DNA of 14,441 nt from a virus (lineage: Duplodnaviria; Heunggongvirae; Uroviricota; Caudoviricetes), in the IMG/VR virus record IMGVR_UViG_2531839554_000008. One strand, written 5' to 3'. The notes under the pieces are model-generated. The model worked only from the letters and a program-made list of their open reading frames with translations, ran no database searches and was not told the DNA's origin. The translations under genes and the position numbers were made by a program. This document shows, in pieces, positions 473 through 11,325 of the stretch (its first letter is position 1; every line of letters starts with the position of its first letter).

Positions 473-494
473 ATAGATGATAGTTATTTATCAG
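473..494. repeat. candidate attL core (ATAGATGATAGTTATTTATCAG)
   Basis: 20 of 22 positions identical to 11304-11325; identical 11-mer ATGATAGTTAT at 477-487 and 11308-11318; outermost repeat pair bracketing the island. Confidence 0.4.
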
Positions 495-497
495 TTA

Positions 498-640
498 GTG
501 TTCGCGGGTGTTCGCCGTGGTGTATCTGTCTCATTTATTGCTATGATTATAAAGGAAAATTTCGTTTTTCTTGTTCGCCCTTGTTCGTCGCTGTTTGCCC
601 TTGTACGATGCACGGTGTAGTCAATGGTGTAGTTAATTTT
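498..640. repeat. left arm: phased (G/T)TGTTCG repeats plus tandem GGTGTAGT(C/T)AAT pair (candidate integrase/RDF arm-type sites)
   Basis: GTGTTCGC at 498 and 508; TTGTTCG at 571 and 581 (10-bp phasing); ACGGTGTAGTCAATGGTGTAGTTAATTTT at 612-640 matches 11211-11239 at 28 of 29 positions. Confidence 0.55.
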
Positions 641-660
641 GATGACCGGAAATACGAAAC

Positions 661-1899
661 ATGAGCAGGGCAATTCATAGACTTAGCGACACTCTTTTAC
701 GAAAATTAAGCGGATCACCAACCACAAAAAACACCTTTTTTAATGATGGTGGCAACCTTAGCGTAAGGCATTCAACCAATGGCCTGTTAACTTGGTATTT
801 CACTTACAGGGCCGGAACTGGCAGGCAGGTATCACCGGAACGCCTGAGACTGGGCAACTATCCCGATCTGAGCCTGAAAGCAGCCAGAGAAAAAGCGGCA
901 CAGTGTCGCGCCTGGCTGGCTGAGGGGAAAAATCCGCGCTATGAACTTAATCATGCTGTACAGGACGCGTTAGCCCCCGTGACGGTTAAGGAAGCGCTCA
1001 CTTACTGGCTTGAATCGTACGCAAAGGAAAAGCGCACTGACTACGAATCACTGAAAAGCCGGATCAATAAACACATAATTAGCCAGATTGGCGCTATGCC
1101 ACTGGAAAAATGCGAGCTACGGCACTGGTTGGCCTGTTTTGACCAGATGGCAAAGCGAAGCCCAGTATCTGCCGGATTTTTGCTACAGGTATGCAAACAG
1201 GCGCTTAAGTACTGCCGAAAACGACGATACGCAATCAGCAACGTTCTTGATGATATGGTTGTCGGTGATGTGGGAAAAAAAGCAGAAGTGAGCGAGCGCG
1301 TACTAACAAACAAGGAGCTTGGGGAATTACTCCGCGCCCTGGATGACAAAATATTCCCGCCATACTACAGCGCCCTAATTCGCCTCCTGATTGTTTTTGG
1401 ATGCCGTACCACTGAGCTAAGGCGCTCTGAGGTGCAGGAGTGGGATTTTAAAGAAATGCTCTGGACAGTACCGAAGGAGCACAGCAAAACGAAGGTCGCC
1501 ATATTCAGGCCAATACCGGAAAGCATTTTGCCGTTCGTCACGCAACTGGTGGAGCAGAACAGACACACGGGCTTATTGCTTGGTGAACTGAAAGGACAAT
1601 CTTCGGTAGCAGAGTACGGAAGAACAGCGCACAGACGAATTAATCAAGCCCCTTGGACGTTACACGATATCCGGCACACATTTACAACCATGCTGAACGA
1701 TTTAGGCGTGGATCCGCATATTGTCGAGCAGCTTACAGCCCACCAGATGCCAGGGATGCAACGAGTCTATAACCACTCCCGCTATCTTGATGCAAAACGT
1801 GATGCTCTTAATCTATGGGTAGACCGTCTCGAGCTTCTCCAGAACAATGATGAAAAAATCGTTGTTATGACCCCACGAATTTACACCCAAAATTCTTGA
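661..1899 (+). CDS. int: tyrosine site-specific integrase, P4-type
   Basis: 412 aa. N-terminal arm-binding-type region (LSD..LRKL...WYFTYRAGTGRQV...LGNYPDLSLKAAREKA); C-terminal catalytic signature LHDIRHTF ... VYNHSRY (H-x-x-R and Tyr nucleophile). Adjacent to the island end. Confidence 0.93.
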   Translation: MSRAIHRLSDTLLRKLSGSPTTKNTFFNDGGNLSVRHSTNGLLTWYFTYRAGTGRQVSPERLRLGNYPDLSLKAAREKAAQCRAWLAEGKNPRYELNHAVQDALAPVTVKEALTYWLESYAKEKRTDYESLKSRINKHIISQIGAMPLEKCELRHWLACFDQMAKRSPVSAGFLLQVCKQALKYCRKRRYAISNVLDDMVVGDVGKKAEVSERVLTNKELGELLRALDDKIFPPYYSALIRLLIVFGCRTTELRRSEVQEWDFKEMLWTVPKEHSKTKVAIFRPIPESILPFVTQLVEQNRHTGLLLGELKGQSSVAEYGRTAHRRINQAPWTLHDIRHTFTTMLNDLGVDPHIVEQLTAHQMPGMQRVYNHSRYLDAKRDALNLWVDRLELLQNNDEKIVVMTPRIYTQNS

Positions 1900-2308
1900 C
1901 AAATTACGGCTGTTTTTTCTTTAAGAGATTACAGCCGTGAATAAATCGACGAATATCGACAAAGTTCGTTGTGTTTTTATTTGTCAACCATCGAAAAAAT
2001 TGAAATGTCTTCTTCTGAATTCTTATTCTCTGTTTTTTGATCGTTCCCGCAATCGATGGTTTATCTGTTTGTTTTTAATGAGATAATTCAAACGTAATGC
2101 CAAATGACGACATTTTTTGTTGCGTCGCTTAAAAACTCGTGACACGATTTTAAACACTAACGAGCTTCTACGAACCTTAGCGAACAAAGCCTTTAGCAAG
2201 GTTGTGTTTTTAATTTAAGAGGTGAAAAAGAATCTAAGTAATATCCGATCTCATATATCTACAGCTAAGAGAAAAGTTTATATACGTAATTTTTATGTAG
2301 GTTTTTGT

Positions 2309-2518
2309 ATGCGTGAAATAAATGAAGATCGCGTAATCCGTGAGGATGAATGTCGTAAGTTAACTGGAGTGTGTCGCACTACACGCTACGAACTGGAGAA
2401 AAAAGGATGCTTTCCGTCACGTCTTAATCTGGGTGGTCGCTCTGTAGGTTGGCTGCTGTCCGAGGTTATGGAATGGGTTAAAAGCCGGGATCGCATTAAT
2501 TCAGGCAAGGCAGCGTAA
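2309..2518 (+). CDS. alpA: AlpA-family transcriptional regulator / excision activator (small HTH protein)
   Basis: 69 aa MREINEDRVIREDECRKLTGVCRTTRYELEKKGCFPSRLNLGGRSVGWLLSEVMEWV... matches the AlpA pattern (R..TG.s..t.Y......FP......G.sVGW...E...W). In-frame ATG at 2309 chosen over the track GTG at 2222. Lies downstream of int as in P4-like elements and PICIs. Confidence 0.85.
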   Translation: MREINEDRVIREDECRKLTGVCRTTRYELEKKGCFPSRLNLGGRSVGWLLSEVMEWVKSRDRINSGKAA

Positions 2519-2532
2519 AGGGGAGTATATGA

Positions 2533-2565
2533 CACATAAAACAAAGGCGACCGGAGGCGGTCGCC
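2533..2565 (-). terminator. rho-independent terminator, minus strand
   Basis: 8-bp GC-rich stem GGCGACCG/CGGTCGCC (2546-2565) with a 4-nt loop, followed on the minus strand by UUUGUUUUAU (2545-2536). No U-tract on the plus side. Confidence 0.55.
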
Positions 2566-2656
2566 AATGGGAAAACACTAAACATAAGCCCGAACATCAT
2601 AGCGATTTGCTGGCTGGTGGGCAATGTGATCAGTGTGCTGGCTTGCTGGTGGGCTA

Positions 2657-2836
2657 TCAACCTTTTGGCTCGATACCGCGCTGTTGTAATTCTTTGCGGA
2701 TTATTCGCTTTATCCAGGCAGCAAGAGAATCATCGCCGTCCTGTTGTTGTGCTTTTTCCATCTTTTCCCGTAAGTCAGGATCTAAACGGAACTGGAACGG
2801 AGGATTACCACGCCTTTCGTTTTTGTGTGTTGACAC
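2657..2836 (-). CDS. small ribbon-helix-helix-like DNA-binding protein (putative repressor), 59 aa, not in the ORF track
   Basis: Minus-strand ORF GTG(2836)...TGA(2657): (M)STHKNERRGNPPFQFRLDPDLREKMEKAQQQDGDDSLAAWIKRIIRKELQQRGIEPKG. The pattern strand FQFRL, helix PDLREKMEKA, turn, helix AAWIKRIIRKEL fits Arc/CopG-type RHH. GGGGTG lies 8 nt upstream of the GTG; followed by the minus-strand terminator at 2533-2565. Plus-strand ORFs here (2529..2942, 2617..2841) are Cys-rich and implausible. Confidence 0.45.
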   Translation of the reverse strand: MSTHKNERRGNPPFQFRLDPDLREKMEKAQQQDGDDSLAAWIKRIIRKELQQRGIEPKG

Positions 2837-10323: not shown

Positions 10324-10343
10324 CCCGTTGATTCTTCCAGAAT

Positions 10344-10401
10344 CCCCCATTGGGGGAGGCTGGGCGGCCTGCTGTGGGCTTTTCCACCATTGGTGGAAAA
10401 G
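10344..10401. repeat. CCATTGG-centred palindromes (CCCCCATTGGGGG at 10344-10356; CTTTTCCACCATTGGTGGAAAAG at 10379-10401)
   Basis: Perfect inverted-repeat arms (5 bp and 10 bp) around an ATT centre; the second reappears at 11089-11110. Confidence 0.7.
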
Positions 10402-10797
10402 TGGCGCGACTACAGGGCTGGATCATCAATATGGTGACGCAGCAACAGAGTGACCATTAGTCACCTTGTTCTAACTCGCTGTATTCGTTTAATTTCCACC
10501 AACTGCGGAAATTGAGAAACTCACCCGCCAGACCCTGAATAGTGAAAATCGCTATGCAGCTTCATGTGTCCATTTCCCCGAAACAGGAAAACCCGTTTTC
10601 GGGAGAAGGTGCGATCATGTTCGTCATACCTGTTCCGTTGAAACGGAATACCCGATTCCGGCGTAGCTGGTGGACGCACAGCCACATACAACTAACTTTG
10701 CGCGTCAGTATTGCTGACCCGCAAACAACAACCCGGCAACAGAACGTTACCCGATTCAGCCGTTCGATGGCATCACTGGACCCACTTTCCTGATGCG

Positions 10798-10953
10798 TTT
10801 GCGGGTTATTTGGGGGGTGTTTGCGGGTTATTTTGAATGTCTTGCGGGTTACGTTTTGGCTAATATTCAAACATGTCATTTTTTAACGTATTGATATTAA
10901 AGAATAAAAAATACTTAGCACGCGAAGATAACCCGCTAACCCGCATAACCCGC
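10798..10953. repeat. iteron array with inverted arms: 3x TGCGGGTTA (21-22-bp phasing), a 77-bp AT-rich spacer, then 3x TAACCCGC (8-9-bp tandem)
   Basis: TGCGGGTTA at 10800, 10822, 10843; TAACCCGC at 10929, 10937, 10946; AT-rich 10852-10928; followed by GTATATATATAC (10961-10974). Confidence 0.75.
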
Positions 10954-11088
10954 ACTGTTTTGTATATATATACGAAAAATTGCATTCAGGAGGGGGATCG
11001 AAATTCCTGCAATCCATTACTTATGGAACTATCCGCCCCGTCAAATTTTTACACCCGCGAAATTAAAAAAATGCGTTGCGCTGGTGGG

Positions 11089-11110
11089 CTTTTCCACCAT
11101 TGGTGGGAAA
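11089..11110. repeat. second copy of the TTCCACCATTGGTGG palindrome
   Basis: TGGGCTTTTCCACCATTGGTGG is shared between 10375-10396 and 11085-11106. Confidence 0.7.
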
Positions 11111-11170
11111 CATGGCACCACATCCACCAGCTTGATAACGGATAGCCGGAAAACGATAACGATTAAAGCG

Positions 11171-11239
11171 TGTTGATCTTTGTTCGTGGTTGTTCGATAT
11201 TGTTCGTGGAACGGTGTAGTTAATGGTGTAGTTAATTTT
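11171..11239. repeat. right arm: 3 phased TGTTCG repeats plus tandem GGTGTAGTTAAT pair
   Basis: TGTTCG at 11181, 11191, 11201 (10-bp phasing); ACGGTGTAGTTAATGGTGTAGTTAATTTT at 11211-11239 matches 612-640. Confidence 0.55.
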
Positions 11240-11303
11240 ACTGTTTTTGACGAGTTTATTGTTTGTAACGCAATGAAAAATAAAGGCTAATAAGCCAAAT
11301 GCT

Positions 11304-11325
11304 ATAAATGATAGTTATCTATCAT
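11304..11325. repeat. candidate attR core (ATAAATGATAGTTATCTATCAT)
   Basis: Matches 473-494; contains a perfect dyad ATGATAG-TTAT-CTATCAT, as expected for core-type recombinase sites flanking an overlap region. Confidence 0.4.

Follow-up and report, generated by a model that had tools for sequence, protein, structure and literature searches.

Attachment site of a likely phage-inducible chromosomal island between cspD and clpS of Escherichia coli: an outer core and arm repeats probably read by integrase and AlpA

Integration site and gene content

The window, as we call the whole stretch of 14,441 nucleotides analysed (IMG/VR record IMGVR_UViG_2531839554_000008), contained an island of 10,831 bp (477–11324) integrated at the 3′ end of yljB, between cspD and clpS of Escherichia coli. 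The repeats at the two ends of this island, and the proteins that may read them, are the subject of this analysis. The gene order was cspD, yljB, island and clpS-clpA, with cspD at 32–256 on the minus strand, the host small-protein gene yljB at 406–480 on the plus strand (both from RefSeq annotation, yljB also from alignment with the empty site) and the host gene clpS at 11410–11730 on the plus strand (annotation), 85 bp 3′ of the right attachment core. Eighteen complete E. coli genomes, F11 and BH100 included, were 100% identical to the window, and its int-alpA type was carried by approximately 317 of 5,426 complete E. coli genomes.

The island encoded a tyrosine integrase (Int; 661–1899, plus strand), as judged from Pfam matches and domain-wise identities, with an N-terminal Arm-DNA-bind_3 domain (PF13356, residues 8–95, E = 1.1e-16) and a Phage_integrase catalytic domain (PF00589, residues 214–375, E = 2.5e-18). 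The product of alpA (2309–2518, plus strand), a small winged-helix protein of 69 amino acids, matched PF05930, was 43% identical to P4 Vis (E = 4e-19) and fell in a PHROG annotated ‘excisionase and transcriptional regulator’. The AlpA of Pseudomonas aeruginosa, an antiterminator, was rejected as a model, being a much larger protein with another mode of action. Annotation and domain scans further assigned a D5_N/DUF5906 primase (3981–5735), a ClpP-protease/major-capsid fusion (7330–9243), a DUF1441 protein matching terminase small subunits (TerS-like; 9500–9985), an Icd-like protein and SSB. A Gram-negative phage-inducible chromosomal island (PICI) is characterized by a size of about 8–12 kb, by int, alpA, primase/replication (pri/rep) and packaging or capsid genes, and by rightward transcription (Fillol-Salom et al. 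2018). The island carried this gene set, with int, alpA, a pri/rep module and packaging/capsid genes at a dedicated attachment (att) site.

Core and junctions of the attachment site

An earlier note on this DNA, made from the sequence alone, had proposed an outer pair of repeats as the core of the att site, with arm-type repeats just inside each end; all its coordinates and sequences for both sets of repeats were correct. The outer copies (473–494, ATAGATGATAGTTATTTATCAG; 11304–11325, ATAAATGATAGTTATCTATCAT) were identical at 19 of 22 positions and shared the exact 11-mer ATGATAGTTAT (477–487 and 11308–11318), and the right copy contained a perfect dyad, ATGATAG-TTAT-CTATCAT (11308–11325). On statistics alone, these features were unremarkable. 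Approximately 0.3 pairs with 19/22 identity are expected per window, approximately 34 repeated 11-mers occurred in simulated sequence of the same size, and three perfect 7-N4-7 dyads were observed versus about 0.9 expected. The outer pair was validated externally by the empty site, by the published att core and by a contig with the attP junction.

The empty cspD–clpS site of strain K-12 reads ...CGATAGATGATAGTTATCTATCATGTGGAG..., and it was followed by the left flank of the window up to position 493 and by the right flank from position 11308. The common core is thus ATGATAGTTATtTATCA in attL (477–493, plus strand) and ATGATAGTTATcTATCA in attR (11308–11324, plus strand), in agreement with four divergent islands at this site and, for attL, with the published core. 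T11325 together with the attR core completes the dyad. The dyad was intact in the empty K-12 site and is therefore host sequence; as a feature of the core it was present and perfect as the earlier note had described it, but it belongs to the host and lies within chance expectation when taken alone. In most of the 5,424 E. coli genomes matching the left flank, the match ended at window position 493, and the four islands at cspD–clpS (int-alpA region 84–95% identical) had the same junction pattern as the window. The same 11-mer, ATGATAGTTAT, is given in Table S1 of Fillol-Salom et al. (2018) as the att core at cspD–clpS for EcCIIHE3034 (10.5 kb) and for EcCI18098 (ST127, 10.8 kb).

The bases that differ between the two copies located the exchange. 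G476 is host sequence and A11307 island sequence, while T488 belongs to the island and C11319 to the host; since these two pairs bracket the exchange, crossover is placed within ATGATAGTTAT (477–487 and 11308–11318). The stop codon of yljB (TGA, 478–480) lies inside the core, and yljB was regenerated intact in attL. Regeneration of a stop codon is the usual behaviour of integrases that target the 3′ ends of genes. The reconstructed attP reads ...ATAAATGATAGTTATTTATCAG... and attB reads ...ATAGATGATAGTTATCTATCATG..., with TGATA-N6-TATCA common to both. A 6-bp spacer centred on the dyad (GTTATC/GTTATT) gives the most symmetric half-sites (TGATA/TATCA), but takes in the T/C mismatch. Homology of the P′ arm across three att classes begins at TTATCA, so that the overlap would fall wholly within the 11-mer.

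The metagenome contig OOBX01002772.1 contained exactly the predicted 33-nt attP junction, in which P arm and P′ arm meet at ATAAATGATAGTTATTTATCAG. It was flanked by the P arm, with its TGTTCG array and pair of 12-mers, and at its opposite end by 44 nt of the P′ arm. A tandem integrated dimer would yield an identical junction, and the contig is an excised, concatemeric or tandem form. The predicted junction was found once in metagenome contigs and not at all in IMG/VR viral contigs. Since the contig joins the two arms through the core, it bears out the proposed layout of attL = B-O-P′ and attR = P-O-B′. Together with the catalytic and N-terminal arm-binding domains of Int, the shared core and the attP form are features of an att site of a heterobivalent tyrosine integrase.

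The recombination site might instead be sought in the inner 29-bp tandem block, which is the longest near-perfect direct repeat at both ends (28 of 29 positions identical); an identical sequence, CGGTGTAGTTAATGGTGTAGTTAATT, is listed as the att core of EcCIDI14 in Table S1 of Fillol-Salom et al. (2018). Host sequence, however, stopped at 493 and resumed at 11308, approximately 120 and 70 bp outside the blocks, and the 24-mer was found inside islands that use three different cores. In clone D i14, island sequence ran about 150 bp to the left and 85 bp to the right past the tandems, up to a GTGA-containing junction. Because OOBX01002772.1 joins the arms via the outer core, the inner block is excluded as the crossover site at cspD–clpS, and with it the excision junctions at the 29-bp repeat that the earlier note had named as redefining the core. 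We regard this reading as scarcely credible.

Repeat arrays in the two arms

Both arms contained repeats of two kinds. On the plus strand, TGTTCG or variants with one mismatch started at 499 and 509, at 572, 582, 592 and 602, and at 11171, 11181, 11191 and 11201, always at a spacing of 10 bp. In the P′ arm they formed a core-proximal pair (499–514, plus strand), a putative AlpA box I in view of repeat statistics, conservation and the corresponding position in P4 and KplE1, and a four-unit array in exact 10-bp phase (572–607, plus strand; TGTTCG/TGTTCG/TGTTTG/TGTACG), a putative AlpA box II in view of conservation, of KplE1 sites I3-5 and of the four TCCNN repeats of P4. The latter array adjoined the arm-type pair and the region upstream of int. 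The P arm held another four-unit array in exact 10-bp phase (11171–11206, plus strand; TGTTGA/TGTTCG/TGTTCG/TGTTCG), again of putative AlpA sites.

The second kind was a 12-bp repeat, GGTGTAGTYAAT, which started at 614, 626, 11213 and 11225 and thus formed one tandem pair per arm. The P′ tandem (614–637, plus strand) consisted of GGTGTAGTCAAT and GGTGTAGTTAAT with a 12-bp period, and the P tandem (11213–11236, plus strand) of two copies of GGTGTAGTTAAT. Both are candidate sites for the N-terminal domain of Int; the P′ tandem was invariant across PICIs with three different cores and corresponds to the tandems of P4 and KplE1. A further inverted pair of GTTCG motifs (CGAAC-N5-CGAACA, 10 bp apart) lay on the minus strand at 2171–2186, approximately 125 bp upstream of alpA. 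It was kept in seven islands and is a candidate AlpA autoregulatory site.

In attP, counted from the first core base, TGTTCG-type units would stand at −137, −127, −117 and −107 and 12-mers at −95 and −83, upstream of the core (0–16). Downstream follow TGTTCG at +22 and +32, TGTTCG-type units at +95, +105, +115 and +125, 12-mers at +137 and +149 and the ATG of int at +184.

The 10-bp-phased TGTTCG arrays and the 29-bp block (612–640 and 11211–11239; 28 of 29 identical) were thus present at both ends as the earlier note had said, and they were far beyond chance. Exact TGTTCG pairs at a distance of 10 bp were observed four times versus 0.0035 expected (2000 Markov-1 simulations), the 12-mer occurred in three exact copies versus 0.0009 expected per strand, and the 69-nt modules 572–640 and 11171–11239 were identical at 54 of 69 positions, with 4e-12 such pairs expected. 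The repeats were kept, amid variable spacers, in four divergent cspD–clpS islands and in a mosaic arm described below, and the inner repeats were conserved in dozens of loci. Chance or low-complexity similarity, which would suffice for the outer 11-mer and the dyad taken alone, has virtually no probability as an account of repeats with these statistics and this conservation.

Phased short repeats may also serve in replication. P4 has short iterons near attP (crr), and the arrays might be iterons like the type-1 repeats of P4 ori/crr, bound by the primase/helicase of the island; the motif TGTTC resembles the P4 iteron. The arrays accompanied three unrelated replication proteins (D5_N primase, DUF927 and RepA helicase), which disfavours replication iterons. 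They also flank the core symmetrically in attP, and better origin candidates lie at 5807–5917 and 10797–10957. This account is very unlikely.

The mosaic arm was found in the last 280 nt of the reverse strand of IMGVR_UViG_2562617057_000004 (L026). This cspD–clpS island had the Int, AlpA, P-arm array and core of the window type, and its spacer between arm-type tandem and core, 75 bp long, was that of the att classes of EcCICFT073 and TW10590. As the spacer came from another att class while arrays and core were retained, the arms are mosaic and the spacer is interchangeable.

Covariation of repeats and proteins across PICIs

In two PICIs with other cores, the GGTGTAGTTAAT pair was identical in both arms, namely in EcCICFT073 (roxA-phoQ, core GGACATATTT) and in the abgR-smrA island of TW10590 (core AATATCGTGA). 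In both, the 10-bp motif was TTGTTCC/TTGTTTC, compared with TTGTTCG in the window. The Int proteins of both islands were 89–93% identical to that of the window in the arm-binding domain (residues 26–95) and 65–75% in the core-binding domain, and their AlpA proteins were 56–57% identical to that of the window. The pairing of motif and AlpA was scored in 35 IMG/VR loci and in E. coli loci, where alpA lay in the fetched stretch. Window-type AlpA always occurred with TTGTTCG arrays and CFT073-type AlpA always with TTGTTCC/TTGTTTC, while the 12-mer was constant. One type of N-domain thus went with one 12-mer, two types of AlpA with two 10-bp motifs, and three types of core-binding domain with three cores. 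The simplest mapping would be that the Int N-domain reads the 12-mer, AlpA the 10-bp array, and the core-binding and catalytic domains of Int the core.

An AlpA site would also be expected between int and alpA, since AlpA activates its own promoter in EcCICFT073. At this place, the inverted CGAAC-N5-CGAACA was kept amid variable sequence in seven window-type islands, and CFT073-type islands had four to five AACAA units at a phase of approximately 10 bp directly after the int stop codon. No recombinants uncoupling the AlpA allele from the Int allele were found among the loci compared. Matches to alpA only in O157:H7 were rejected as such recombinants, being located at cspD–clpS with a related int. 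A scan of genome contigs with an Int alignment yielded two loci only, one of them irrelevant, which is too few for a wide survey of covariation.

Proposed function of the arm repeats

The earlier note had assigned the inner repeats to the N-terminal domain of Int and/or to AlpA, and this finds support in the Arm-DNA-bind_3 domain of Int and in the homology of AlpA with Vis. Since the layout is identical to that of P4 and KplE1 and the repeats covary across PICIs, each repeat class is probably read by a protein of its own, the 12-bp tandems by the Int N-domain and the 10-bp arrays by AlpA. Taken together, we consider it likely that the island is a PICI of the published EcCI18098/EcCIIHE3034 group, that the outer pair is its core, that the inner repeats form arms of the P4 type, and that within them the 12-mer is read by the Int N-domain and TGTTCG by AlpA.

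In this reading, strand exchange took place inside ATGATAGTTAT, and the inner repeats serve as both arms, P and P′, of an attP of the P4 type. The two copies of GGTGTAGTTAAT in each arm would be the arm-type site for the Arm-DNA-bind_3 domain, by means of which Int would bridge arms and core as part of the recombination complex. The TGTTCG units (2 + 4 in P′, 4 in P) and the inverted pair upstream of alpA would be cooperative AlpA arrays. AlpA, as a Vis/Xis-like winged-helix protein, would bend the arms, favouring excision, and, as in P4 and KplE1, it would probably also modulate transcription of the neighbouring int and alpA regions. The sequence data show the junctions and the core, the statistics and conservation of the repeats, the protein homologies, the match in architecture to P4 and KplE1 and a contig of attP form; how the repeats are shared out between the two proteins, and what this would do to directionality or transcription, we infer from sequence comparison and analogy.

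Several points weigh against this explanation. In EcCICFT073, AlpA was without effect on Pint-lacZ and was described as an activator, not as an excisionase, and spontaneous excision was seen. With Pint unaffected and excision spontaneous in that island, a role of AlpA as directionality factor follows only from homology and architecture, and the unchanged Pint-lacZ weakens the placement of AlpA at the P′ array beside int. As the Int and AlpA types were never uncoupled, covariation cannot fully separate the two readers. The IHF consensus WATCAANNNNTTR (up to one mismatch) was absent from both arms. The T/C mismatch lies at the edge of the symmetric spacer, leaving the cleavage positions ambiguous. 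TorI, the directionality factor of KplE1, fell below the Pfam threshold for AlpA and was not a significant match to the AlpA family, and the Vis box positions on P4 used in the comparison are as reported in secondary citations.

It could also be that integrase alone reads all inner repeats, or that the assignment is reversed, with TGTTCG as the arm site of the Int N-domain and AlpA acting purely as an activator off the att arms. The activator role, unchanged Pint-lacZ and spontaneous excision in EcCICFT073 would fit, as would the constant linkage of Int and AlpA alleles, and a difference of 7–11% between the two PICI classes in the Int N-domain could in principle explain the G-to-C change of the 10-bp motif. 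In P4 and KplE1, however, the two relatives studied by experiment, Int has 12-bp tandem pairs as its arm sites, and it is the directionality factor that uses the repeats at 10-bp phase. Likewise, the invariant repeat tracks the near-invariant N-domain and the variable repeat the variable AlpA, and the allele-specific motif is also found upstream of alpA, where AlpA acts. We regard a scheme of this kind as unlikely, though not negligible, and prefer the division of the two repeat classes between Int and AlpA.

A more far-reaching version can be offered only tentatively. In it, the PICI attP would carry on both arms, in direct orientation, a composite module of four AlpA repeats and then two Int repeats, and AlpA would act as a single switch with two functions. 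Once a helper phage has induced the island, AlpA filaments on both att arms would drive excision and block re-integration, and AlpA would simultaneously activate its own operon through the allele-matched array upstream of alpA. If true, such a two-armed directionality design would set these islands apart from lambda, P4 and KplE1, in each of which the factor is confined to a single arm.

New here are the way in which the two repeat classes probably divide the labour, the two-armed arrangement with the array upstream of alpA, which suggests that AlpA is also an excision factor, and the finding that arm repeats of this kind have been published as att cores of some PICIs. The boundaries, attP and attB of a widespread E. 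coli satellite island are now exact, and AlpA, so far described only as a PICI activator, may also be an excision directionality factor like Vis.

Other published att cores of PICIs

The att site core published for EcCIDI14, CGGTGTAGTTAATGGTGTAGTTAATT (Fillol-Salom et al. 2018, Table S1), is the internal arm-type tandem, and the published coordinates start and end on the tandems. In the corresponding locus of clone D i14 (L006), the tandems lay at 1549–1572 and 12165–12188 and the true ends near 1417–1421 and 12258–12270. Sequence identical to the abgR-smrA island extended past the tandems by approximately 150 bp to the left and 85 bp to the right. In clone D i14, it stopped within a split ISEc45, at a junction containing GTGA that appears to be a secondary attachment site. 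In ATCC 25922 (L007, 1043–1340 and 12480–12620), the att core published for the yejM-luxR PICIs (TTTGTAGTTATACGTTTGTAGTTATACGG-like) was again a 12-bp tandem arm repeat, with two copies of TTAGTTATACG and, on the left, an inverted pair as well. The true core is probably the 3′ end of tRNA-Pro (CTCTCGTGCCGACCAAA on the left, CTCTCGTGGACCAAAAA on the right), which was adjoined by ACCGGA repeats in 10-bp phase. Two att cores of the standard PICI table are thus internal arm repeats, with consequences for annotation: the published boundaries are off by tens to approximately 150 bp per end.

Further features of the window

The earlier note had suggested that the insertion could replace or alter the promoter region of clpS-clpA. 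After insertion, the native 85 bp upstream of clpS were retained, and clpS was separated from yljB and everything farther upstream. Scans with the sigma-70 consensus found no plus-strand promoter upstream of clpS at the empty or the occupied site, and no int promoter within 380–660. A literature search for the clpS transcription start found nothing.

Two other kinds of satellite were considered and rejected. A capsid-forming PICI (cf-PICI) has a complete head module, with capsid, protease, portal, head-tail connectors, TerS and large terminase (TerL), and another locus (L004) carried the full set. In the island, the head module was limited to the protease-capsid fusion and the TerS-like DUF1441 protein, and neither a portal nor a large terminase emerged from annotation and domain scans; the island is hence not a cf-PICI. 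The P4 late genes were absent, and sid, psu, delta, epsilon and alpha-type genes were neither annotated nor detected in the island, which is therefore not a P4-like satellite; its distant homology to P4 extended no further than Int, a primase and the AlpA/Vis homologue.

A small divergent gene (2657–2836, minus strand), placed between alpA and the Icd-like gene, had a weak Arc-like repressor match (PHROG 228), and related islands had a YlcI/YnfO-family gene annotated at the matching place. Its product is a candidate for the PICI repressor. Rfam detected no RNA families within the island.

Two regions resembled replication origins. Just 3′ of the primase gene, at 5807–5917, two palindromic units (GTAGACAG...CTGTCTAC around a T-run) lay 85 bp apart; this is an origin candidate, as PICI origins are usually found in such a position. 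At 10797–10957, three direct TTGCGGGTTA repeats, an AT-rich stretch of approximately 70 bp and three inverted TAACCCGC repeats followed each other. Replication origins and terminase recognition sites typically have an AT-rich region flanked by iterons in this way, and this one is a candidate for either. The GCGGGTTA iteron region was bracketed by two copies of a 27-nt repeat (10374–10400 and 11084–11110; 96% identical, 710 bp apart) containing the palindrome TTTCCACCATTGGTGGAAA, with a weaker third copy at 10493–10511.

An 85-nt direct repeat (6728–6812 and 9262–9346; 96% identical) had one copy after ssb and the other after the capsid gene. Both copies started at a terminator-like hairpin with a T-run, ended at a minus-strand ATG and held GGTGTAGT, the first 8 nt of the arm-type 12-mer. 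Two unannotated ORFs (6576–6812 and 9152–9346) shared an N-terminus within this repeat. The predicted RNA fold of one copy was not significant (z = −1.6).

Downstream of clpA, beside tRNA-Ser, a small CRISPR array consisted of 28-nt repeats 60 bp apart (14250–14277 and 14310–14337) with a degenerate third copy (14367–14397), and it matched Rfam CRISPR-DR4 with 50 bits. It resembles the known E. coli type I-F array of the clpA-infA region.

Comparison with known systems

The core was already known, as Fillol-Salom et al. (2018) list ATGATAGTTAT in their Table S1, and P4 and KplE1 have the same arm design; with respect to the att sites, that table gives the core only and describes no arm repeats. 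The insertion site and core of the window are those listed there for EcCI18098 and EcCIIHE3034, and the 10,831 bp measured compare with 10.8 kb for EcCI18098. The window probably contains EcCI18098 itself. This is probable and not proven, since the table entry gives no accession. No literature on EcCI18098 was found. Strain F11 is presumably ST127, matching the lineage listed for that island.

The island attP resembles that of lambda in its logic, with a heterobivalent integrase, a core and, as proposed for the island, arm sites and a directionality factor polymerising on phased direct repeats. The arrangement of the arms differs, lambda having Int arm sites P1, P2 and P′1-3 and Xis sites X1-X1.5-X2 in the P arm only, and the two attP sequences have no useful similarity. 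As a rule, a directionality factor has as its sites direct repeats spaced by one helix turn.

P4 (Pierson & Kahn 1987; Cali et al. 2004; Piazzolla et al. 2006) shares with the island an Arm-DNA-bind_3 integrase, a Vis/AlpA homologue, 12-bp tandems in both arms and 2 + 4 repeats at 10-bp phase. In its GenBank record, the ‘attP arm sequence repeat’ forms 12-bp tandem pairs in both arms, and between the core and the int-proximal pair there are two TCCRA repeats 10 bp apart near the core, followed by four TCCNN repeats 10 bp apart that adjoin the tandem. The distance from core to P′ tandem is 112 bp in P4 and 120 bp in the island, and that from P tandem to core 53 and 71 bp, respectively. The repeat sequences differ (GGGGGCAT and TCCNN in P4, GGTGTAGTTAAT and TGTTCG in the island), the Int proteins are only 23% identical, and P4, unlike the island, has no 10-bp array beside the P-arm tandem. 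Vis is reported, in secondary citations, to bind and bend attP, to be required for excision and to repress int.

In KplE1 (CPS-53), TorI has five cooperative sites (GTTCG/GTCCG/GATCG), which form two blocks between core and intS. Of these, the distal one is in exact 10-bp phase and set against the −35 of PintS, and IntS has 12-bp tandems as its sites in each of the arms (Panis et al. 2007, 2010). As in the island, the integrase (IntS of KplE1/HK620) contains Arm-DNA-bind_3, and the GTTCG core of the TorI sites and their two blocks between core and int correspond to the TGTTCG blocks of the P′ arm. IntS and TorI are 22% and 25% identical to the Int and AlpA of the island, TorI sites have been reported only in attL, and the target is the tRNA gene argW.

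EcCICFT073, the prototype Gram-negative PICI, shares with the window the GGTGTAGTTAAT tandems in both arms, the order of modules and an inverted 10-bp array between int and alpA, and its Int N-domain is 89% identical. It differs in its core (GGACATATTT at roxA(ycfD)-phoQ), in its AlpA (56% identical) and in its morphogenesis genes.

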